Below, piece after piece: positions 737-58,400 of a DNA stretch of 64,000 nt. Position numbers and translations under genes: made by a program. This stretch comes from Candidatus Eiseniibacteriota bacterium (GTDB taxonomy: Bacteria > Eisenbacteria > RBG-16-71-46): assembly GCA_963717505.1 (NCBI GenBank), contig OY970342.1, positions 3,872,001 through 3,936,000 of the forward strand. Direction: 5' to 3'. The stretch's first letter is position 1; each line of letters opens with the position of its first letter. A model generated the notes under the pieces. That model was given only the letters and a program-made list of their open reading frames with translations, did not search any database and was not told the DNA's origin.

Positions 737-2179
737 TCAGGCGACGCGCCGGCGGAATCGCGCCGGCAGGACGCTGAGCTGCTCGCGGTACTTGGCCACG
801 GTGCGTCGTGCGATCTTGAGTCCCTTCTCGTGGAGCAGCTCGGCGATCCGCTGGTCCGAGAGCGGGTCCTTCTTGTCCTCCTCGTCGATGAGCGTCTTGA
901 TGATGTTCTTGGCGGTGCGCGCCGAGACGTCTTCGCCATCCTCGGTCTCGAGGCCGCTCGAGAAGAAGAACTTGAGCTCGAAGACGCCGCGCGGCGTCTG
1001 CACGTACTTGCCGCTGCACACGCGGCTCACCGTCGATTCGTGCATGTCGATCTGGCGGGCCACCTGCTGCAGCGTCAGCGGGCGCAGGAACTGCGATGCC
1101 CTTGTCGAAGAACTCGCGCTGCTCGCGGATGATGCAGTTCATCACCTTGATCATGGTGCTGCGCCGCTGCTCGATGGTCTGGATCAGCCAGCGCGCGGAG
1201 TTGAGCTTGCCCTGGATGTACTCGCGGGTCTTCTGCTCGTCCGAGCTCGTGTCGGCCTTGCTCTTTTCGCGCAGCACGCTCTCGTAGGCCGACGAGATCC
1301 GCAGCCGCGGCAGGTGCCGGTCGTTGAGCAGCGACGACGTACTCCTCGTCGACCCGCTCCACCAGCAGGTCGGGCACGACGTACTTGGGATCCTCGCTCG
1401 ACACCTGGAGCCCCGGGCGCGGGTTGCAGCGTCGCGATGACGTCGGCCGCGGCCTGGACCTCCTCGACCGCGCACTTGAGCTGGCGCGCGATCTCGGGGA
1501 AGCGCCGGTTGACCAGGTGGTCGAAGTGGTCGTGGATGATGCGCCAGGCCAGCGTGTCCTGCTCGCCGCGGGCCTCGAGCTGGATCAGCAGGCACTCGCG
1601 CAGGTTGCGCGCCCCGACCCCGGCCGGCTCGAGCGCCTGGATCACTTTGAGCACCTTCTCGCACGTCCTCGACGGTACAGCCCGAGGCCTCGGCGACATC
1701 CTCGAGCGGCGTCGCGAGCCAGCCGCTGTCGTCGAGCGAGCCGACCAGGAACTCGGCGACCGCTCATGTAGCCGTCCGGCAGGTTCAGGAAGTGGAGCTG
1801 CTCGAGCAGGCTCTCGGCCAGCGTGCGTGCGCGTGACCGGCACCTTCTCGAGGAACTCGACGCTTGTCTCGCTCTGCGGCACGTAGGTGCGGTCGAGCAC
1901 CGTCCTGCAGGTAGTCCGACCAGTCGATCGGATCCTCTTCGCTCGGGATCCTCGGCCTCCTCGTTGGCCTTCTCCTCGGGCGAGTCCTCCTTGCGCGAGG
2001 TCCTCGTTGTCGGTGAGCTCGTCGACCTCCTCGAGCAGCGGGTTCTGCATGATCTCCTGCTTGAGGATCTGCTGCAGCTCGAGGGTCGGCACCTGGAGCA
2101 GCTTGAGCGCCTGCTGCAGCCGCGGCGTCATGATCAGCGCCGGCCGCAGCGACAGGTTGAGCGAGGGTTTCATTTCCAT
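737..2179 (-). CDS. rpoN: RNA polymerase sigma-54 factor (split by indels)
   Basis: N-terminus MTPRLQQALKLLQVPTLEL...NPLLE, central GVGARNLRECLLIQL, and C-terminal HESTVSR plus RpoN box ARRTVAKYRE, spread over several frames. Confidence 0.95.
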
Positions 2180-2194
2180 GGTGGCAGTCCCGTC

Positions 2195-2975
2195 CTAGAG
2201 GCTGAAACGTTCGCCGAGGTAGATCTCGCGCGCTCTCGGAGTCGCTCGCCAGCTCCTCGGCCGTCCCTGCAGCAGGATCCGGCCCTCGTACATGATGTAG
2301 GCGCGGTCCGTGATGCGCAGGGTTTCGCGCACGTTGTGATCGGTGATCAGCACGCCCAGTGCCGCGGTCGCGCAGCCGCGCGACGATGTCCTGGATCTCG
2401 GCGACGGCGATCGGGATCGATGCCGACGAACGGCTCGTCGAGCAGCATGAACGACGGGCTCGCCGCGCCAGCGCGCGGGTGATCTCGACGCGCCGCCGCT
2501 CGCCGCCCGACAGCTTGGTCGCCTGCGCGGTCGGCCAGGTGCGTCAGGTTGAGCTCCTCGAGCAGCTCGGCCAGGCGCTCCTCGCGCTCGCTGCGACGTC
2601 AGCTTCATGGTCTCGAGCACCGCCAGCACGTTCTCGCGCACCGTGAGGCGGCGGAAGATGCTGGGCTCCTGCGCCAGGTAGCCGAGCCCGCGACGCGCCC
2701 GCCGGTACACCGGCTCGTCGGTGATGTCGCTCGCCCTCGAGCAGGATGCGCCCGTGGTTCGGGCGCAGCAGACCGACGATCATGTAGAAGGACGTGGTCT
2801 TGCCGGCGCCGTTGGGCCCGAGCAGACCGACGACCTCGCCGCGCCGCACTTCGATCGTGACGTCGTTCACCACGCGCCACTTGCCGTAGTAGCGGACCAG
2901 ATTCTCGGCACGCAGCTCGGCCGCCACCGCCGGGGTTTCGGCCACGGGCGCCTGATGTTCCTGGGTCACGGTCAT
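2195..2975 (-). CDS. lptB: LPS export ABC ATPase
   Basis: [51 protein letters not shown] and [11 protein letters not shown]; frameshifted. Confidence 0.92.
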
Positions 2976-3565
2976 TCCGGATCCCGCGGTCGCACCAGGC
3001 CTTCGGTGTCCGAGCGCACCGTGGCCTTCACCGCACGCTTGAACTCGAAGTGCCTGAGGTCGGGATCGCTCTCGAATCCATACCCGGTCAGCACGTCGCC
3101 GCCGCGCTCGACGCGCACCAGCTGGTTCGTCGGGGACCATGCATCTTCTGCGCTTGGTTCAGGAACCGCAGCTCCTCGGTCGACAGCCGCGTGCCCTCGG
3201 TGGTCTGGAGCACGACGTTGCCGCGGGCGATCATGTCGCGGGTGCGCTGGTTGATCTCGCCCTCGCGGGCGATCAGCTCCGAGGAACGCTCGCCCTGCTC
3301 GTTGAAGAAGTCGACGCGGACCGCCTGGGCGATGGTCAGGTTGCGCGCGTTGTAGGTGGCGGCGCTGCGCGCGTAGAGCTTCCACTGCGACGCGGCCGTC
3401 GTCGGTCTCGGTCAACGCGAAGTCCGAGACCTCCTGGTCGGGCAGTTCCTGGGCCGGGACCGCCGGGTTCGGCCGGCGCTGCTCACCACACGCGGAAAGG
3501 CTGGCCACGGCAAGCATCGCCAGCAGCATCCATCCGACGTTGGGGATAGGGCGTCGTCTCCGCAT
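2972..3565 (-). CDS. lptC: LPS export periplasmic protein LptC
   Basis: Hydrophobic lipoprotein-like N-terminus (ASLSAC), [13 protein letters not shown] and [12 protein letters not shown]; lies between kdsD and lptB; frameshifted. Confidence 0.75.
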
Positions 3566-3656
3566 GGGACCTTTCGGTTTCTGGATGCCGCGAGGCGGCG
3601 CCTGCGCCCCCGCCGCGCGGGTCGAAGGGCGACGCTAGCAAAGGTATGGGACCCCG

Positions 3657-3675
3657 GCAAGCACAGCTTGTGCCA
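3657..3675 (-). promoter_or_regulatory. Putative sigma54 (-24/-12) promoter of lptC-lptB-rpoN-hpf-hprK
   Basis: Minus strand reads TGGCACAAGCTGTGCTTGC, i.e. GG-N10-GC with TGGCAC, about 90 nt upstream of lptC. Confidence 0.55.
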
Positions 3676-3769
3676 AATGCCCCTGCCTCGTGATACGTGG
3701 TTATTATCGGAAGGGTTACGCCGTTTCTTGACCCCGGGGTGTCCGCATTCGGACCCGGGGGTGACGGCC

Positions 3770-48263: not shown

Positions 48264-49628
48264 TCAGCCCTGGTAGTAGCGGTCCGCCACCTCGAGGGCC
48301 TTGTCGATCGCGGCCAACCCCTCGCGCGCTTCGTCCGGCGTGGTGGTGCATGGCGGCGTCACCTGCAGCCGGTTGAAATGAGCGAACGGCCAGACGCCGC
48401 CCGCCTTGCAGGCGCTCATCAGCTCGACCATCGGCTGGGCCGCCGGCCCCGCGGCGTTGAACGGCACCAACGGCTCACGCGTGTCGCGATTGCGCACCAG
48501 CTCGATCGCCCAGAACACGCCGAGCCCGCGCACCTCGCCGACGCTCGGGTGCCTGGCGGCGATCCTTTCCAGCTCGGGACCGATCACCTCGGCGCCCAGG
48601 CGCCGGGCGTTCTCGATGATCCGTTCCTCCTTGAAGACCCCGATGCTGGCCACGATCGACGCGCACGCCAGCGGATGCCCCGAATAGGTGAGGCCACCCA
48701 GGTACACGCGATCCTTGAAGGTCTCGGCGATGCGCCGGCTGATGATCACGCCGCCGACCGGGACGTAACCCGAGTTGGAGCCCTTGGCGAAGGCGATCAG
48801 ATCGGGCGTCACCTTCCAGCGGTCGACCGCGAACCATTCGCCACAGCGTCCGAAACCGGCCATGACTTCGTCGCAAATCATGACGATGCCGTGCTTGGTG
48901 CACAGATCGCGCACGCCCTGCAGGTAGCCATCCGGCGGCACCAGGATGCCGTTGGTGCCGACCACGGTCTCGAGCACGATCGCGGCCACCGTGTGCGGCC
49001 CCTCGACCATCAGGACGTTCGACAGATGCTCGAGCGCACGCGCGCATTCTTCGGCGGCATCCCGCGCGTGGAACGCGGATCGATAGAGATAGGGACCCCA
49101 GAACTTGACGATCCCGGGCATGCCCGGCTCGCTCCCCCATCGGCGGGGATCGCCGGTCATGGTGATCGAAGTTCCGGTGGCACCGTGATAGCTGCGATAG
49201 GCGGTCAGCACCTTGTGGCGGCCGGTGTGTCCGCGCGCCATCCGCACCGCGTTCTCGTTCGCCTCGGCGCCGCCGTTGGTGAAGAACACCATGTCGAGAT
49301 CGCCCGGAGCCAGCTCGGCGATCAGGCGCGCGGCCTCGCTGCGCATGTCGTTGGCGTGGAACGGCGCAATGGTGCACAGGCGCGCCGCCTGTTCCTGGAT
49401 CGCGGCGATCAGCTTGGGATGCTGGTGCCCGATGTTGACGTTGACCAGCTGGCTGGAGAAATCGAGCCAGGTGTTGCCCTTGTCGTCCCACATGCGGGAG
49501 CCCTTGGCCCCGGCGATCACCGTGGGCTTGAGCGCCCCCTGGGCCGACCAGGAGTGGAAGACGTGGGCGCGGTCGTTGGCGTAGGCGCTGTCGAGATAGG
49601 GCGAGGTGTGCGTTTCGAGGTGGGTCAT
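48264..49628 (-). CDS. Class III PLP aminotransferase (taurine/omega-amino acid:pyruvate-like)
   Basis: VFHSWSAQ, FFTNGGAEANE, SYHG, DEVMAGFGR, AKG and GLTYSGHP. TATCAT 7 nt upstream of the ATG suggests a leaderless mRNA. Confidence 0.92.
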   Translation of the reverse strand: MTHLETHTSPYLDSAYANDRAHVFHSWSAQGALKPTVIAGAKGSRMWDDKGNTWLDFSSQLVNVNIGHQHPKLIAAIQEQAARLCTIAPFHANDMRSEAARLIAELAPGDLDMVFFTNGGAEANENAVRMARGHTGRHKVLTAYRSYHGATGTSITMTGDPRRWGSEPGMPGIVKFWGPYLYRSAFHARDAAEECARALEHLSNVLMVEGPHTVAAIVLETVVGTNGILVPPDGYLQGVRDLCTKHGIVMICDEVMAGFGRCGEWFAVDRWKVTPDLIAFAKGSNSGYVPVGGVIISRRIAETFKDRVYLGGLTYSGHPLACASIVASIGVFKEERIIENARRLGAEVIGPELERIAARHPSVGEVRGLGVFWAIELVRNRDTREPLVPFNAAGPAAQPMVELMSACKAGGVWPFAHFNRLQVTPPCTTTPDEAREGLAAIDKALEVADRYYQG

Positions 49629-51097
49629 GAAGGATATGATACGTGACGTGAGAGCACTACGAAAACTGCGGTGCAGTTGCGTGAGTCGGAGCGGGCCGGA
49701 GGCCACGCTTCCGAAATCAAGCGCCGTGGGGTAGATCGAGCACTCGCAACCGAGGTGACGATGCCCTGGATCGTCGCGAAGACGTCGGAACAGCCTTCGT
49801 CACTGGAGCGGATGCGCCACTCGCCCAAGGTGGTATCGCAGCGCGTCGGCTGGCCGACGCTGAGGTCGGCTCTCCAGCAGAGGGTGAAGGTGCGCGACTG
49901 CCCGGCGTTCAGGCTGTACGGCGGACTGCTTCCCGCACCACTGATCGTCACGCCATCGAGCAGGATGGTGCCCGTGTCCCAGCCGATTTGCTGGGCACTC
50001 AAGTTGCCGGTCTGCAGCGTGCTCGAATTGTTCTTGAGCGTCAGGCTGCCACAGCGGATCTCGCCGGGCCGGAAGTAGCCGAAGTGGATCTGCTCAGGCT
50101 GGTAGGAGCAGCCGATCACGCCGCTGCCCCAGCAGCTGAGCGGCGGGCAGCCGGCTCCGACGTTGACTTCGCAGGTGTGGTCGCCGACGTAGATCGGCTC
50201 AAAGCGCACGATGAAGGTCTGGCGCTCGCCCGGACCCAGGTCGTAGCTCGCTTGGCCGGCAATGCTGAAACCGGGGCAACTCTCGGTAACCGTGCCCGCC
50301 AGGTTGCTGGTGCCCACATTCGTGAGCTCGAAGGTGGCGTCGGAGCGAGTGCCCAGCGCCTGCTGCGGGAACAAGAGACCGCTGACGGAGAGCTGGCAGG
50401 CGGGATCGACGGGAACCCCGGTGCCGGTGCACATGATTGCTGGGCAGCCGGAGGCGGTGATCGTGCAGCTTTGGATCCCGGCTTGGCTTGGGTGGAAGCG
50501 GATCGTGAGGGTCTCTGACTGGCCTGGGCCCAAGTCGTAGCCCGTCAGGCCCTCGATCGCGAAGGCTGGGCAAGATTCGGCGAGGCTTCCGACCAGCCGG
50601 CGAGTTCCGGTGTTCGTGACGGTGAAGGTTCGATCCAGGACCTGACCGACGGTCACGCTACCGAAATCAAGGGTGGCCGGCGATACAGCACAAGTATCCG
50701 GTCCCGGGATCCCCGTGCCCTGGCAGGCCACGATGCATGCGGCCTGGCCGGTCGAGACCGTACAGCGATATGCACCCTCCGCCGGAGGAGAGAAGCGGAC
50801 CGCGATGATGACGGATTGGCCCACGCTCAGGACGTAGTCGGAGCTCCCAGCAATCAGGAAGCCGGTGCAGTTGGCGGTCAACGCTCCCGACAGGACACCG
50901 TCGCCGGCGTTGGTCAGGGTCACCTGCCGGTCCGCGGACGATCCGACGGCGACGCTTCCAAAATTCATGCTCGTGGCACTGAGCGAGCACTGGGGCGACG
51001 GCGGTGCCGTCGGGGGATCGGATTTCTTGGCACACGCCAGCGCCGCCGCAACAAGCGTGAACAGGACGTACGAGGAGATGCGAGGGTTGGGCTTCAC
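49625..51097 (-). CDS. Cys-rich lipoprotein with four tandem ASH/choice-of-anchor-D Ig-like domains; 3' end appears truncated
   Basis: Lipobox ALAC and ~95-aa repeats C.....L.FG.V.VG...D...T.TN.G...L...C..F...Y.L.PG....I.RF.P...G...C....C....C.G.G; start overlaps the recombinase stop (GTGA). Confidence 0.75.
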   Translation of the reverse strand: MKPNPRISSYVLFTLVAAALACAKKSDPPTAPPSPQCSLSATSMNFGSVAVGSSADRQVTLTNAGDGVLSGALTANCTGFLIAGSSDYVLSVGQSVIIAVRFSPPAEGAYRCTVSTGQAACIVACQGTGIPGPDTCAVSPATLDFGSVTVGQVLDRTFTVTNTGTRRLVGSLAESCPAFAIEGLTGYDLGPGQSETLTIRFHPSQAGIQSCTITASGCPAIMCTGTGVPVDPACQLSVSGLLFPQQALGTRSDATFELTNVGTSNLAGTVTESCPGFSIAGQASYDLGPGERQTFIVRFEPIYVGDHTCEVNVGAGCPPLSCWGSGVIGCSYQPEQIHFGYFRPGEIRCGSLTLKNNSSTLQTGNLSAQQIGWDTGTILLDGVTISGAGSSPPYSLNAGQSRTFTLCWRADLSVGQPTRCDTTLGEWRIRSSDEGCSDVFATIQGIVTSVASARSTPRRLISEAWPPARSDSRNCTAVFVVLSRHVSYPS

Positions 51098-51771
51098 GGC
51101 GGCAAGTCTCGATACCCGGGGGCGGGTGGTTCATGGACAAAGCCCGAGCCGACGCTTGCCGGCTGAGTCTGGTACGCCGCGCCTGAGTCCGGATGCACGA
51201 TCCACGGCGATCGCTCGAGCTGCTCGAAGAGCGCGGCGCGATGTCGGTCGGTGATCCGCGCGTAGATCGAGGTGCTCCGAATCGACTGATGTCCGAGGTG
51301 ATCCTGGACGAACTCAAGACTGACGCCGGCATCCAACAGATGCGTCGCGATCGAGTGCCTCAAGCAGTGGCAGGTGTACCGACTGGGCAGATGCGCGCGA
51401 TCGCGGTAGCGGGCGAACAGGGACTGGATCTGGCGTTTGCGCAGCGGCCCATCGCGCCCGGGGAACAGGGGACCATCCGGACGACCTGGAGCCATGGCCC
51501 GGAATGTCTGCAGCAAGCTTGCTGTCGAGCCGAACAGCGGCCGCTCGGTCCACGCCCCACCCTTGAGTCGCTTGACCACGATCCGGCCGCGTTCGAAATC
51601 GACGTCGCCACGGACAAGGAGTGCTACCTCCCCGACGCGCAGGCCGTAGTGATAGATCAGCGCGAAAAGCGCGCGGTCGCGAGGCTCCGCGATGGCCTGG
51701 AAAAAGGCACGGACTTCGATCTGGGTGAGGTAGCGGGGCAGGCGCTGACTCGCGCCCGCGGGGCGGGGCAT
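51094..51771 (-). CDS. Short FimB/FimE-like tyrosine recombinase
   Basis: 225 aa, catalytic domain only: YLT..E, YGLRVGE (R), RLKGG (K), HCLRH (HxxR), LGH and TSIY (Y). Confidence 0.92.
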   Translation of the reverse strand: MPRPAGASQRLPRYLTQIEVRAFFQAIAEPRDRALFALIYHYGLRVGEVALLVRGDVDFERGRIVVKRLKGGAWTERPLFGSTASLLQTFRAMAPGRPDGPLFPGRDGPLRKRQIQSLFARYRDRAHLPSRYTCHCLRHSIATHLLDAGVSLEFVQDHLGHQSIRSTSIYARITDRHRAALFEQLERSPWIVHPDSGAAYQTQPASVGSGFVHEPPAPGYRDLPP

Positions 51772-51801
51772 GGATTCGAGGGGATCAAGGGCGAGACCGG
51801 C

Positions 51802-51829
51802 ACTGCACCTTTTAGCGAAACGGTGCGGT
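51802..51829. repeat. Putative recombination site A (11-6-11)
   Basis: ACTGCACCTTT-TAGCGA-AACGGTGCGGT: imperfect inverted arms around a 6-bp core. Confidence 0.7.
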
Positions 51830-51964
51830 GCTTGGGCTTGAGCCGACCGGGCGGGACCTGAGGAGGGTGTCGGCCGGTCGGCCAGGTCAACCGAGGAATC
51901 AGGCCGTGGCAGAAACCGGCGTTCTTGCCGTTACTTCAGCGGATTCTGGGGGCCCAGAGGCGGG

Positions 51965-51992
51965 ACTGCACCTTCTCGCTAGATGGTGCGCT
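51965..51992. repeat. Putative recombination site B (11-6-11, core inverted relative to A)
   Basis: ACTGCACCTTC-TCGCTA-GATGGTGCGCT; TCGCTA is the reverse complement of TAGCGA. Confidence 0.7.
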
Positions 51993-52002
51993 AGGAATTC
52001 CA

Positions 52003-52031
52003 AACATACGCTCTCAAGCTCCGATCGTCAA
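52003..52031 (-). promoter_or_regulatory. Sigma70-type promoter firing into site B and the recombinase operon
   Basis: TTGACG-N17-TATGTT on the minus strand. Confidence 0.6.
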
Positions 52032-52129
52032 TCCGCTCGCGAAACCGTCCATCTCTCCTCCCTACATTCAATTCAAACGGAGCCCACGGTTACCACCCAC
52101 GCCCAGAAGGTCCCAGTGCTTTCAGCTTG

Positions 52130-52435
52130 TCAAACCTTTGAATCGCGTGTCCCTTCGGTTCTTAATCGCTTGATGGCCGCCTCAATCCTTCCCCTAAGCG
52201 CCGGATCTGTCCTCCATTGTTCATCCGGAGGAATGTCGAACCCCATCGCGTGCAGATCTTTCACTACCTCACGAACGACACGGTGGGCCGACGGCGCCCC
52301 AAAATAATCGTCCCAGTCCCATCTACGCTCCTCGCCCCTGAGAAATCGCTCTAGCGCTTCCGCCATGCCTTCGGGTTCGATTCCACCAAAGATCTTGTCT
52401 CGCAGCTCTCTCAGCCACACGATTAGAGCTCGCAT
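52130..52435 (-). CDS. Putative immunity protein of the RHS toxin
   Basis: 101-aa ORF whose ATG overlaps the RHS stop (TAATG); contains ERFLRG...WDWDDYF. Confidence 0.65.
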   Translation of the reverse strand: MRALIVWLRELRDKIFGGIEPEGMAEALERFLRGEERRWDWDDYFGAPSAHRVVREVVKDLHAMGFDIPPDEQWRTDPALRGRIEAAIKRLRTEGTRDSKV

Positions 52436-55400
52436 TACTTGTATCCTGGCCACCATCGTGGCACAGGGATGTCGATCGGATGCCGCCACCAACCACCCTT
52501 ACCCGAGCCAATGGCCACGCGGAACGTTGGATGACCCAGCCCGCGAGACGCATCCCATCCCCATCCTACTCTAAACCACCGGTTCCTATTGAAGATCCCT
52601 CCCGGATTCCCCATACCCGATTTTCCAAACCTTCCGCCCCATCTCGGGTGGAAGTCCATCAGACCAATCGCAACGCCGGTCCATTGTCCCCTCCCGTATG
52701 CCCCTCCGCATGGATCGATCTCGTCCTGCACCTCGAAACTCTCTCGAGCCCATTTCGTAGCACTCCAGTCTGTGAACGGGACACCAGACACTGCATCTCC
52801 GACACCAGCGAAGTAGTCATCCCAATCATGTCGGTCGAGCCACATCGCCGGTCCGTCGATCACATCAATCCAATCAGTCCCGTACGGATCTATTGCATTC
52901 ACAGGGTTGTTTCCAACGTACGCGTAGAGGTTCACGTCACCCCCCGCAAAGCGAATGGGATCCTTCGTCGTCCACCGCCCGAAGTTCGGGTCGTAGTCGC
53001 GCGCGCCAAAACGTACGAGATCGGTCTGCCCATCCCACAAGCCGCCAGCGTACCCAAAGCACTGGAATCCCGGCGCCGAGTCGTCGGTAACCCGACCGTA
53101 GCTGTCGTAATCCAGGCGTTGTGCGATCGATCCAGTCGAAGCATTCACCACCAGGCGCACCGAGCCCAGGTGGTCCGAGATGATCCGGTACGTCGTCCCG
53201 CCCTTCACCACATAATCCGGGACATGCGCTCGCGTCCCATAGACGTACCGTGCCGCCAGATTCCCGTTGCCGTCGAACTCCGCCACAGGCTCCAGCTGGT
53301 CCTGATAGATCCAGCGGTGCGTTACTACGCCGTTGCGCTTGCGGACCACCCGGCGGTTGCGTCCATCAACCATGTACTCAGTGGAGTCCCCACTCGCAAG
53401 CTTGACCTTCAGCAGGTTCCCGAGGGCATCATAGGTGTACAGGCTCGGGGTCGAAAAGGCTTGAGATTGCAGGTCGCCCCCTGCCGAGTACGTGAACGTG
53501 GTGTTCCGATAGCGGAGCATGCGATCCTGGCCATCCACCGTCATGGTCGCCGAGTCTCCGGGCGCATCGTAGCGCACGCGGTTGCCGTTGCCGTCGTAGC
53601 CATAGCGCTCGGTGACCGTGCCGTTCACCGTCACTCGGACCAGGAATCCCGAGTCCGAGTAAACATAGTTGATCACTTTGGTGGTGCCGCTAATGGTCTC
53701 GGTCACTCCAGTGATCCGACCGACGGAATCGCGAGTATAGATCGCGTCGTAGAAAGGCGTGGCGCTGTACGACGCAGTACGTCGCCACAGGTCCCCTTGC
53801 CACGAGTAGCTCTCGCTGGTCGTGACGTTGCCAAGCGTCGTGCCGGATATGAGCCCGTTGTCAAGTCGACGGGCAATTGCTAGAGCACCCACCCCTTCAA
53901 GGAGCCCGTCGCTGTCATACGAATAGGCGACCATGTTCGCACCGTTGACTCTCTGGCTTGAGACCCTTAGGTCACGGTTGAGGGCAAATGACACGGTGTC
54001 TGTTACATGCCCCGTCCAGATCTCGCTAGTATCTACCGGCCCATAGTTTCCAAACGTGAGAAACACGCTGTCGGGCGAGGTGAGGGACGCCAGCTGACCG
54101 GCGGAAGAATACGAAGCCGTGAACTTGCCGCGGGCGATCGTGACCGAGTCGACCGTGCCGCCTGCCCCAAAGGCCAGCGCTACATTCTTTCCATCGGGGC
54201 GATAGATTCGCATCAGCTGCCGATCGGAATTGTACGCATACTGCGTGAGCGAGTGGGGAAGGCCCATTGGCGGAGGCCGATACTTGTCGACCAGATCTGT
54301 CGGTGTGTACTCGAACTGATGTTCGTGAGGCCCCGGAGGCGTAACGCCCATAAGATTGCTTGATGCATCTGGTTCGAGCCCCACGTCGCGGTTTCCGGGA
54401 AGTTTCACGCTCGTTAAGCGATCCGCGGTGTCGTAGGAGAGAGTGGTCATGATCCCCGAAGTGTCACGTACGACTGCCAGCCGGCCGCGAGCATCGTAGC
54501 CGTATCGCAGTCCCCGTCCTCCCTGGGTGCTCCGTTCAAGCCTCCCCTGTTCATAGTGGTAGATCCAGGGCGCCAACCCTGGAACGGTCATGGTCAGCGG
54601 TCGCCCAGCGGAATCAAGTGTCACAGTGGCCGTGCGGCCCCTTGGACTGCGCATGCGGACTATCAGGCTGTCGGAGTGAAACTCGACGCGGTGGGCGCTG
54701 TCACCGTTCACGCTGTCATTCTCCGCCCACTCCCCATGCGTGAACGGTGGATTGAACAACGTCGACATCCCGCGCTGTCGTTCGACTACCCGCGTCATTC
54801 CATTCGGCAGTCGGACTCGACTGCGTCGCGAGTAGGGCGCTACAAAGCCGAAACGCGGGTCCGCCCTCACGCTATCGACGGATGAGCCCCCATCGGGCCA
54901 AGACGCAAGGACCCTCATGTCCGAACTATCCGTTCGCACATAGCGGAGCCCCGCGGTCGTTATCTCGCGCTGCCTCGTAGAATTGAGCAGCTCGGTAACA
55001 TCGTAGGTAGTCATAACCCCAGCGCCAGTCGTCCTCGTAACCGTCCGTTTGAGCCCGTCATACGAAACCGCCAACTGTTCCGAAACCCCCGTCCCAGGCG
55101 GCCCCTCGTCCTCCCACAGTCGCCCGTCCGCTCCCCACGTGAATGTATGGACGTTGCCACGTGGATCTGTGAAGGTCTCGAGTAGTCCGTCAGATCTCGT
55201 CGTCAGTTCTATCGCGTTACCAAGCGTGTCCTCGACGCTCTCCAAGCGGCCGTTGCTATCCACTGTTAGCCTCGTCCGCTGCCCGAATGGCGCAAGGATC
55301 CCGATTGGGGCTCCGGTCCCTCCCCGCTGAATCTTGGTCGTAAGGCCGTTGACGTCCCGAATGGTGGATAGCCTCCCAGCCGCGTCATAACCGAACTCGT

Positions 55401-58400
55401 GGCGCACGGCACCGGTCATCGCATCACGCGTGTAGAGGTGCCGCCCTGCTGTGGTCCCGTTCCTCGCGAACACGTAGTACTCACTTCCATCGGCGCTGGC
55501 CACCACAACTTCGGGAGTGCCTTCGCCGGCAAATGGATTCCGCACAGTATATAGTCCGACATGCCGACTCCATGCAAACGTCTCATCAGGGGCGATCGCA
55601 ATCGCTTGGACATCAAAGCCGCGTAGACTCAGAAATGGCACCCCACCAGAAGTCGCATCGCTGAGTCCGCTGAACGGACTGGTGAAGCCAAGTTGCGACA
55701 ATGTACCGTCAGGCTCGCGTTTCATGAAATACCATCTGGTTTCGTCATTCATGACCGACGAGAACAACAGCATCCCTCTAGCGTTGGCGGTTAGTGTATG
55801 GATCCGATCCCCTGGCACGTCCGATTCCATAGCAATCGTGCTCAGCATCCCGTCAGGTGACACGCGTTTGATCCGACCCTTTTCGTTGATATATAGGTTG
55901 CCCTCACCATCGGCAGCAATGTCGAGCCCGTACATTATGCTGAGGCTGGTCGCAGCGCCTGTTGAGTCGTTTGAGTTGCCCAGCCCGTTACCGGCATAGT
56001 TCCTAATTATGCCATTGGGCCCAATTCTTCGAATACGAATGTTGCCAACGGCACCATAGTTGTAGCCATAGCGCCCGTTACTAACAAATAAGCTGCCGTC
56101 AGGTCCTAGGGCAATATCTCCCACGTAGCCCACCCACGCCTCCGATGCCGGTAGGCCGTCGCCTCCCCCTTCCGTTTCCCCAGGCTTGCCGCCGATTATC
56201 TTCCGGATCATGCCGCCTGGTGTGACCACGGCGACGATGGCTTCGTCCGGCTCCGACGAACGCCCCGCGGCCAGATAGACCGAGCCGTCAGGCCCGACCG
56301 CCAGGCCGTTGATCTGGTGGGGCAGCGCCGTTGCCGTGGCTGACCCATCACCCTGGTATGAGCCAGGATTGCCGTTTCCGGCGATTCGCGTAACCGTGCC
56401 ATTCGGGTCGACCCGAAGAACTGAGTTTCGACAATCATCACCAACGTACAGCTCGCCGCGAGGGCCGTAGGCAAGCGCGCGGGAGTCGTCGAGCTTCAAC
56501 GTAGCAACGGTCGCAGAGGGTGCACCTCCAGGGCAGTCGTCAGGATCATTGTACCTTCGGACTATCGGAGTTAGCTGCTCGCCGTCAATCACGGACCCGT
56601 CGCCGAGATAGACGATGCCTTTGCCAACATTGTCGTAGAAGTGATGGGGGCTTAGCGTCCAACCGCCCAGTCCCGCGTTGTCAGCACTTGGAGCACCGAG
56701 ATTCATTGACTGCCAGCTCCATGCGATCACGGGAATCTGCCGCAGCAGGGTCGCTTCTCCTAGGGCCGTACCACTTGCCGCAGGATCTCCCAGCGACTCC
56801 GACCCCGTTCCGCCGACTACCCACCGTCTGTACTCGTAGCCCACGCCAACCCTGGCGACGACAGAACTCGTAACCTCACGGTCGTACGCATCGCGCCCAT
56901 CCCAAGTCATCGTCACGGGTGGCGTGGCGAGGGTGATCGGACCCGGGACGATCTGATGGTACCGTCGCCCAGCCACGAGAAGCTCCACGTGTACCCTATA
57001 GAGACCGATTGGAATGCTTGACCCAACAACGGGAACTCGCACGCTGCGCATGACCTTATCGCCCGGGGCACGGAAGCTGCGATAGTTCAGGCTGTAGGGT
57101 GTGCCGAGCACGCCCAAACGCTGCCCAAGCGTACGGTCTTCACAATTGATGATCGAACCAGGTACTTCGCAGGGATTCGGCGTGTGGCGATCGCTGCGCG
57201 GGGGACCAGGCCCTCCGATCGGGGGCGGCAGATAGCGGACGTTGTAGTCTGCATTCGAAAATCGGTCAACGGGCATTCGCCAGAGAACATCCCCAGCATC
57301 ATACTGTGCAGACATCGCCTGCAGCTCGGCTGATGTAACTCCTAAGCTGTCAAGTCTGGCCTGGCCATCAACCAAAGAATCCCCATTTGAGTCAATCGTC
57401 ACCGTGCCTCCGTTGTCCGACAAGATGCGGACAACCCAGCCGTCCCTTACAGCCACCCATTTCGCTGAACGGCGATCGTAGAACCCATTCGGCACGGCGG
57501 TCCCGACCGGATAGTCGAGGAAGTTACGTACGTAGCAGATCACGGGGTTGGTGAATAGCACGTCTGGGACGGGGAGGTGCGGGGCCGTGCTCTGCCCAAT
57601 GGAATCCGCCTCATCGACGCTGAAGTCAATGCAGTACGTGTAGGAGCTCGAAGGCGGGAGTAGCGCAGGCATGCTCGAGGAGCCATCCTCACCGACCGTA
57701 TACTCCGTCAGCCGGAGTCGCATTTCACTCAATGAGGCGGTATCCCCTGGAGTACGGGCGATCTTCGCGGTTGTACCTGCGTGGAACAGCACTCGTATTT
57801 CGCGATCGCCGTTTAGGTCGGATGCAAAACGGCCGCGAACAACGGTCAATGCGTTGAGATAGACGGAAGTAAACTTCGAACTGCGTCCGACCAGGGCCAC
57901 ATCATCCACAATCGAGTAGTCGTTAGCTTGCGGATGCACGTTGCGCTGGATTTCCAAGAATCCCGCTTTCGTAAATCGAAGTGTCAGCTGGGATCCCCCA
58001 TTAACGACAAGGTCAAATCGCCCGTCTTATCGCGTGATGGCGTGTCCGTATTCTGGGTGGTTAAGGACGCGGACTGTGACATTCCCAACCGGACCGAAGT
58101 CCCTGGCTCTCACCTGACCACGCACGACCGCGGCGAACGCCGGGATAAACTTGGTGCTGTCGACGCCCAGTTGCACAGCACTGGCACCAGAGAAGAGGAA
58201 CCGCACGCCCTCATAGAACGCAGTCGTCGCTGTAACGGAGAATCCGGTTTCGTCGAGGGTCGAATCAGGCGGAGTGGGTTCGCCGGCCAGCGATCTGAAG
58301 ACGAGGCGCGTGAGTTCTCTCTTGTTGTTGGCTGCGTCGACCGCACGGCACACGATCCGATTCGTGCCTAGATCGAGCCGATAGTTCGATAGCGAGAAGC

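Follow-up and report, generated by a model that had tools for sequence, protein, structure and literature searches.

A putative DNA inversion switch in the leader of a recombinase–lipoprotein operon of Eisenbacteria

Findings

The genome of a member of Candidatus Eiseniibacteriota (GTDB Eisenbacteria; GenBank assembly GCA_963717505.1, contig OY970342.1) contains, on the minus strand, two overlapping genes that encode a small tyrosine recombinase and a probable surface lipoprotein, preceded by a leader in which two near-palindromic sequence elements with exactly inverted centres lie downstream of a predicted promoter. We propose that this locus is a site-specific DNA inversion switch located in the 5' leader of a two-gene operon, with the recombinase first and the lipoprotein second, a reading to which we assign a probability of roughly three in four from sequence analysis and comparison with related loci. 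The genome is a single contig of 4,162,540 bases (4.16 Mb; 67.7% G+C), and all coordinates given below refer to the window, that is, the whole stretch of 64,000 nucleotides (nt) that was analysed (G000:C1:3872001-3936000). The elements of the putative switch are listed along the minus strand, with lengths in base pairs (bp), nt or amino acids (aa).

52003–52031, minus strand: predicted sigma-70-type promoter, TTGACG-N17-TATGTT, outside the invertible DNA, with 10 nt between its −10 hexamer and site B
51965–51992: site B, the promoter-proximal putative recombination site, of 11-6-11 layout, with core TCGCTA at 51976–51981
51830–51964: inter-site segment of 135 bp; the flippable DNA would be 51813–51981 if crossover falls in the cores
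51842–51882: 17-nt inverted repeat within the segment, 82% complementary, with a 7-nt loop and without a T-run on either strand
51802–51829: site A, the gene-proximal putative recombination site, of 11-6-11 layout, with core TAGCGA at 51813–51818
51772–51801, minus strand: fixed 30-nt leader, C-rich, with CCCCTC at the Shine-Dalgarno (SD) position and no SD-like 4-mer
51094–51771, minus strand: tyrosine recombinase of 225 aa, consisting of the catalytic domain only, Pfam Phage_integrase (PF00589)
49625–51097, minus strand: probable surface lipoprotein of 490 aa, with a signal-peptide-like N-terminus containing a Cys and three choice-of-anchor D/ASH immunoglobulin (Ig)-like repeats

A preliminary description of the locus had proposed this pair of 11-6-11 sites with exactly inverted 6-bp cores, flanking 157 bp of DNA that begins about 30 nt 5' of the recombinase, and a TTGACG-N17-TATGTT promoter outside the flanked segment. 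Direct reading of the sequence at those coordinates bears out each of these statements: the two cores are exact reverse complements of each other, the distance is 157 bp from core to core and 135 bp from site to site, site A ends 30 nt from the recombinase ATG (51771, minus strand), and the predicted promoter is the sole sigma-70-like match on either strand of 51000–52600, where shuffled sequences average 0.3. The same scan of both strands found no promoter-like match inside the segment. The arm pattern shared by the two sites, ACTGCACC-N12-GGTGCG, has two exact matches in the window and the same two, sites A and B, in the whole 4,162,540-base genome, with no third exact copy anywhere in the 4.16 Mb; when up to two mismatches are allowed, the window contains 5 matches against 1.01 expected. 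In a repeat search the pair comes out at 80% in either sense, over 30 nt as a direct repeat and over 25 nt as an inverted one, and a count by hand gives 22 of 28 identical positions in the direct and 20 of 28 in the inverted alignment. The pair scores in both senses because each site is itself nearly palindromic, and therefore only the asymmetric cores define orientation. On the sense strand, the 26 nt that follow each site (51772–51797 and 51941–51966) are 73% alike in direct orientation; after inversion, these stretches would make an inverted repeat around site A that reaches up to the ATG.

According to the mechanism that we propose, the fixed promoter would fire into site B, and sites B and A would serve as core-type sites, each with a 6-bp crossover region flanked by a pair of inverted 11-nt half-sites, the two crossover regions being opposed, between which the adjacent catalytic-domain-only recombinase would invert ~160 bp. 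In the observed orientation, transcripts would carry a C-rich, G-poor, SD-less untranslated leader that would be poorly translated and possibly Rho-prone, so that both recombinase and lipoprotein would be low, and the scarcity of the enzyme would make this state long-lived. In the flipped orientation, the leader would be G-rich and, in most loci, an SD sequence and a start codon would enter the recombinase frame, so that the operon would be translated; the recombinase made in that state, possibly extended at its N-terminus, would flip the segment back. It is reasonable to infer that orientation affects the enzyme's own expression, and our working hypothesis is that the observed state is one of low recombinase and lipoprotein and the flipped state one of high expression.

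Conservation of the site pair and its cores

The recombinase is one of a large family: a homologue search returned 1549 candidates, 887 of which score E ≤ 0.001, and the best 120 show 63–86% identity and are 192–277 aa long. Related loci were drawn from the genomes of relatives, genome contigs and metagenome contigs. The close set comprised 30 homologues with at least 62% identity and at least 300 nt of upstream sequence; three duplicates were removed, and 28 distinct loci have a site pair. In all 28, both sites lie on one side of the gene, with B starting at about −176 to −240 nt and A at −40 to −67 nt relative to the start codon and with 108–149 bp between them (136–177 nt from start to start), giving the constant order of site B, segment, site A, a recombinase of ~200–225 aa and then, usually, a lipoprotein gene. 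The last 11 of these loci were found by a search that required matching cores; a search using the arms only recovers the same repeat axis in 11 of 11, and such a pair is obtained from 7 of 186 control windows of 460 nt taken from the same loci. Promoter-like sites are predicted within 60 nt before site B in 24 of the 28 loci, compared with 3.5% of shuffled 60-mers, and the −10 hexamer ends 3–19 nt before B. The sequence of the segment itself is poorly conserved between subfamilies.

Among the 26 loci whose recombinase gene ends inside the contig, 20 have a lipoprotein-like product, called by eye from a hydrophobic N-terminus followed by a lipobox-like Cys, as the next same-strand open reading frame (ORF), which starts −55 to +29 nt relative to the recombinase stop. 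In the window, the GTG start of the lipoprotein overlaps the stop codon of the recombinase (GTGA), lying 4 nt inside the recombinase end. The domains of the downstream ORF differ by locus and include ASH Ig-like, fn3 with BNR/sortilin, PEGA and Big_9/PKD.

Tyrosine recombinases need an identical crossover region for strand exchange, and asymmetric inverted cores give inversion. The cores of the 28 loci fall into eight types (TAGCAG in 10, TGGCGA in 7, TAGCGA in 5, TTGCAG in 2, and TGTCAG, TAGAAG, TCGCGG and TAGTTA in 1 each), all of them non-palindromic, and in every locus the cores of A and B are exact reverse complements; when partners were shuffled in 100,000 trials, the mean was 6.5 and the maximum 17 matching cores of 28. 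In an alignment of 17 loci (A2), all 102 core cells are Watson-Crick pairs with no G:U, and five of the six core positions have changed on both sides, in 21 cells, a result reached by 0 of 500 shuffles. The 22 arm positions, in contrast, pair in only 73.5% of cells between the sites and 75.7% within a site, and all four half-sites fit one consensus, ACTGCACCCTT, of which position 6 (A or G) switches jointly in all four. Comparison of half-site quality before and after inversion revealed no clear asymmetry. Taken from these alignments, a perfect match limited to the 6-bp centre, together with half-sites of the protein-binding type, is the signature of a tyrosine-recombinase crossover site and not of an operator or an RNA helix.

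The central claim of the preliminary description, namely that inverted sites bracket a flippable leader after a fixed promoter, is thus upheld as to layout and matched cores in 28 of 28 loci and across eight core types; its further suggestion of a feedback toggle or one-way latch stays hypothetical. It had also suggested looking for similar site pairs upstream of homologous recombinases, and the pair is present at the 28 distinct loci, with two close homologues as exceptions; the recombinase always lies downstream of its putative switch, with a lipoprotein-like gene after it in the proportion given above, as had been described for the window.

Several genomes have more than one copy of the module. 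Two copies with the same core (TGGCGA or TAGCAG) occur in single genomes in three cases, L017/L018 (one metagenome-assembled genome, G055), L186/L190 (G056) and L184/L189 (G079), and the shared cores could allow recombination between distant loci; in a further genome, G105, the two copies differ in their cores (L185, TTGCAG; L188, TAGCAG). Among the distant homologues (42–56% identity), a clear upstream inverted pair was found in 1 of 19, and the architecture is claimed for the close clade only. The single case, L114 (49% identity, on an AT-rich metagenome contig), carries in the corresponding positions, 198 and 18 nt upstream of the recombinase start, an inverted pair that matches at 21 of 22 nt and whose sequence is quite unlike that of A and B.

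The recombinase and its family

The recombinase matches the Phage_integrase profile with 103.2 bits against a cut-off of 27.1, the match spanning protein residues 14–175 and profile positions 2–170 of 172. An alignment of 25 family members shows no variation at R45, K70, H135, R138, H161 or Y170, in agreement with the earlier account of an intact R-K-HxxR-H-Y enzyme, and we take the catalytic roles of these residues to be those established for the enzyme class. The best match in the PDB is 4a8e_A, an archaeal XerA-like protein of 292 aa (E 1.6e-22), residues 99–270 of which align to residues 9–179 of the query; as the query begins where residue 99 of 4a8e_A aligns, it has no N-terminal core-binding domain.

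Among the NCBIfam models, XerA gives the best match, at 124.5 bits against a cut-off of 220, and the cut-offs of XerC (109.7 against 335.15), XerD (88.8 against 329.6) and XerS (66.8 against 267) are likewise not reached. The FimB and FimE models (NF007370 and NF007371) give 58.7 bits (cut-off 221) and 59 bits (cut-off 222), with the match covering profile positions 5–185 of 198. The enzyme had been described as FimB-like; this stands for its size and its catalytic-domain-only architecture, which agree with FimB/FimE, but not for its sequence, since a score of 59 bits against 221–222 rejects membership of the FimB/FimE family and the closest sequence relatives are of the Xer type. Judged by these scores, the recombinase is like a small invertase in its working, stands outside the Fim family and is nearest to the Xer recombinases.

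Predicted consequences of inversion for the leader

The sense strand of the segment is C-rich and G-poor, with a skew of +0.22 in the window and a positive skew in 27 of 28 loci (mean +0.23). The upstream regions of this genome have a mean skew of 0.00 with a standard deviation of 0.09, and only 1.8% of them reach +0.2. The skew of the fixed leader is positive in 17 of 17 loci. A rho gene is present in the genome, and together with the C-richness of the leader this would fit Rho-dependent termination.

The absence of an SD-like 4-mer from the fixed leader stands beside a general enrichment of such 4-mers at −13 to −8 before the genes of this genome. When the segments were inverted in silico, the frame of the recombinase contained 22 SD-like 4-mers 5–10 nt before a start codon and the remaining two frames 2 and 3, compared with ~8.6 such combinations per frame in composition-matched shuffles and with 0, 2 and 1 in the observed orientation; an in-frame combination arises in 20 of the 28 loci. 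Inversion would carry a GTG from the inner arm of B into the left arm of A in 13 loci out of 28, preceded in 8 of them by an SD-like 4-mer, whereas 0 of 28 have one there now. In one subfamily, the opposite strand of a conserved motif beside site B reads GGAG followed by a spacer, with the GTG to come from the inner arm of B (AGTGC). The candidate signal in the window, obtained by in silico inversion and checked by hand, is the following.

51893–51908, plus strand (antisense to the recombinase): candidate start signal, GAGG (51893–51896), 9 nt, GTG (51906–51908)

Once inverted, this signal would precede the recombinase ATG by 117 nt and share its frame, and no stop codon would intervene.

A more specific version of the proposal, which we hold only tentatively and regard as having rather less than an even chance, is that the segment is an invertible translation-start cassette. 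In one orientation it would yield a short enzyme from a C-rich, untranslated and Rho-prone leader that lacks an SD sequence and in the other an N-terminally extended isoform from a translated leader, coupled to the lipoprotein; like FimB and FimE, but encoded by one gene, these isoforms might favour different directions of inversion, which would give self-limiting pulses of the ON state. Such a cassette, if real, would explain the same state in every assembly.

Database annotations touch on this point. Thirteen of the 120 best database homologues extend through site A, although protein data alone do not tell the orientation of the segment. The annotated starts of four of the 120 (P0026, P0086, P0090 and P0116) fall exactly at positions 2–4 of the left arm of site A, and some loci therefore carry a start-type codon there, in whichever orientation they were assembled.

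Observations that weigh against the proposal

A number of observations speak against inversion, or against the assignment of states and the supply of a translation start proposed above. All 26 alignable pairs of segments are co-oriented and none is reverse-complemented in local alignments in both senses. A self-controlling switch should stay mostly in its low-enzyme state, which fits the single orientation shared by all alignable assemblies. The inner arms of B and A show a systematic difference at half-site position 2, which frequent unbiased flipping would erase and which therefore counts against such flipping. A scan of the locus for intrinsic-terminator-like sites found 0 on either strand and so no counterpart of the intrinsic terminator known from cwpV. 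Two close homologues, L006 and L007, lack site B. In L006 (G013), only site A is present, and frameshifted remnants of an IS256-like transposase, on the other strand ~40–700 nt upstream, take the place of B and the promoter; this locus is probably a locked or dead switch. L007 (G014; 69% identity) has a good site A and, within the 336 nt before the contig end, no recognisable B, only a remnant containing TAGCTT.

With respect to the translation start, 8 of 28 loci show no in-frame SD sequence and start codon when inverted. Related loci share start positions and are not independent, so that the frame counts overstate the number of separate cases: there are only ~11 independent in-frame cases compared with 5 out of frame. 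Stop codons in the recombinase frame are only modestly depleted (27, compared with 44 and 42 in the other frames), and the idea of a conserved N-terminal extension was rejected, the predicted extensions being unlike each other as protein. About 92 of the 120 best database homologues start at or near the start of the short form. RNA folding also runs counter to the assignment of states: the start region is more open in the observed orientation (unpaired 0.66 compared with 0.39; 27 of 28 loci) and the leader fold is more stable after inversion in 26 of 28 loci. With the start region more open when un-flipped, the observed state could therefore be the ON state.

Public reads were available from three soil-metagenome runs of one study, as Logan contigs, and gave four contigs of 151–283 nt at a depth of 2–3, with no joints. 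One contig, of 283 nt (51688–51970), runs through site A in the reference orientation and breaks off within site B, at a depth too low to test inversion.

Alternative explanations

Were the second site incidental or a decoy, the module could instead serve integration, excision, cassette exchange or dimer resolution of the dif type. An 11-6-11 site beside the gene of a single Xer-like enzyme would suit such a role: the enzyme is nearest to Xer-type recombinases, the geometry equals that of dif sites, and the distribution is patchy, a close homologue (E ≤ 1e-50) being present in 14 of the 206 genomes of the phylum, this one included, and mobile or variable neighbours occur at several loci (RHS in the window, the IS256-like remnant in L006, a reverse transcriptase in L019). 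That same patchiness implies that the module is not the dimer-resolution system of the chromosome. Moreover, the two sites are in every case found on one side of the gene, 136–177 nt apart from start to start, this genome has no third site, and for this enzyme class asymmetric inverted cores, as found in 28 of 28 loci, lead to inversion and not excision. We consider a mobile module improbable. Slightly less probable still, in our estimation, is that A and B are palindromic operators bound by a dimeric repressor or by an autorepressing recombinase, possibly with DNA looping and without any recombination. Each site is indeed an imperfect palindrome (75.7% pairing within the site), B lies in a classic operator position, 10 nt after the −10 hexamer, A and B are slightly closer to each other as direct than as inverted copies (22 compared with 20 of 28; 80% over 30 nt), and all alignable segments share a single orientation. 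An operator, however, has no need of an asymmetric and exactly reverse-complementary central 6 bp, which is nevertheless present in 28 of 28 loci with eight different cores, and the adjoining gene encodes a tyrosine recombinase whose catalytic residues are intact.

The covariation of the cores could also be read as base pairing, with B pairing to A in the leader transcript to form a long-range helix that controls translation or stability. Compensatory changes are typical of RNA helices, and the predicted fold of the leader does pair B with A (−102 kcal/mol, z −2.8). A selected helix would, however, tolerate wobble pairs, of which there are 0 among the 102 core cells; perfection is limited to the central 6 bp, the 22 flanking positions pairing in 73.5% of cells only; the four half-sites share one consensus of the protein-binding type; and an Rfam search of the leader gave 0 matches at E up to 1. 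To an RNA helix we accordingly give hardly any chance, the smallest among these alternatives. The site-specific inversion switch remains the reading that we prefer.

Neighbouring genes

Two further genes lie upstream of the putative switch in the window.

52435–57957, minus strand: RHS/YD-shell protein (teneurin-type) of 1840 aa, by family match
52130–52492, minus strand: ORF of 120 aa between the RHS gene and the predicted promoter

The order along the minus strand is therefore RHS gene, 120-aa ORF, predicted promoter, site B, segment, site A, leader, recombinase and lipoprotein. The product of the 120-aa ORF (52130–52492) has no match in Pfam or NCBIfam. Together, the RHS protein and the small ORF (52130–57957, minus strand) resemble a polymorphic toxin with its immunity gene, on the same strand as the putative switch and directly 5' of its promoter. 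At another locus, L019, a reverse-transcriptase gene (RVT_1; 2122–3687, plus strand) lies directly 5' of the putative switch.

At the other end of the operon, the stop codon of the lipoprotein overlaps an ATG (ATGA; 49625–49630, minus strand) that is probably the start of a class-III aminotransferase, and the last ~40 residues of the lipoprotein ORF have no domain match. Given this overlap and the domainless tail, the lipoprotein may in fact end at another point, and the limits of the operon may differ from those drawn here.

Significance and comparison with known systems

If the proposed switch is real, the locus would represent a compact, self-contained module for phase variation, made of a promoter, a flip segment of ~160 bp, an enzyme of ~200–225 aa and a cargo gene. 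The cargo varies by locus and yet is nearly always a lipoprotein, which would point to surface variation in soil bacteria, perhaps against phages or predators. The eight natural core variants with their matched enzymes would constitute a set of possibly orthogonal minimal recombinase/site pairs, and an enzyme under the control of its own switch would make feedback in DNA switches directly testable. None of the papers in the collection searched couples "Eisenbacteria" with "recombinase", and such regulation is not known to have been described for this uncultured soil phylum.

The closest known logic is that of the RecV-dependent switches of Clostridioides difficile. In excerpts of the published accounts, cwpV has 195 bp of invertible DNA after its promoter, the published genome being in the OFF state and ~5% of cells ON (PMC2784873), and at flg Rho preferentially terminates the OFF leader (PMC7446863). 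As far as these excerpts go, cwpV and flgB share with the present locus the invertible DNA between a fixed promoter and a gene, repeats located a few tens of bp 5' of the start codon, control exerted after initiation and a surface-structure target. They differ in that RecV is encoded elsewhere and serves several switches, whereas the present recombinase is encoded by the first gene downstream of the very switch on which it would act. The locus described here also has no intrinsic terminator, belongs to another phylum and uses an enzyme of Xer-like lineage. Nothing in the excerpts of the cwpV and flg accounts corresponds to flipped DNA that may supply an SD sequence and a start codon.

The fim system of Escherichia coli likewise has recombinases of ~200 aa without an N-terminal domain, encoded beside the switch, and a surface-structure target. 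In contrast to the present locus, where the promoter is outside the invertible DNA and the recombinase downstream of it, fimS carries a promoter and the Fim genes lie upstream of the switch. An enzyme's dependence on the orientation of its own switch has a precedent there as well: the orientation of fimS controls FimE via a Rho-dependent terminator, as stated in an excerpt of PMC9993118, which cites Joyce and Dorman 2002 and Hinde et al. 2005.

By sequence, the closest relatives are XerA, XerS and XerH with their dif sites, which share the 28-bp 11-6-11 site with a 6-bp crossover region. The gene xerS adjoins its difSL site. The present enzyme differs from these Xer recombinases in having no N-terminal domain and in falling below every equivalog cut-off, and its locus has two inverted sites instead of one. 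Among other related systems, the mad switch of Photorhabdus has its recombinase inside the regulated operon, and the Tsr recombinases of Bacteroides fragilis and the PhaseFinder survey of 2019 belong to the same topic.

Invertons of the type found by PhaseFinder, as presented in the excerpts of the surveys concerned (10.1101/2023.03.11.532203; PMC11892184), also consist of inverted repeats beside a recombinase and near surface-protein genes; some of them are partly intragenic. The invertons of these surveys are defined by reads in both orientations, and most of those described carry a promoter, while the locus described here is known from one orientation. What may set it apart is the combination of a recombinase that comes first in the operon under its own control, a minimal Xer-like enzyme, a core specific to each locus and flipped DNA that may itself supply the start of translation.

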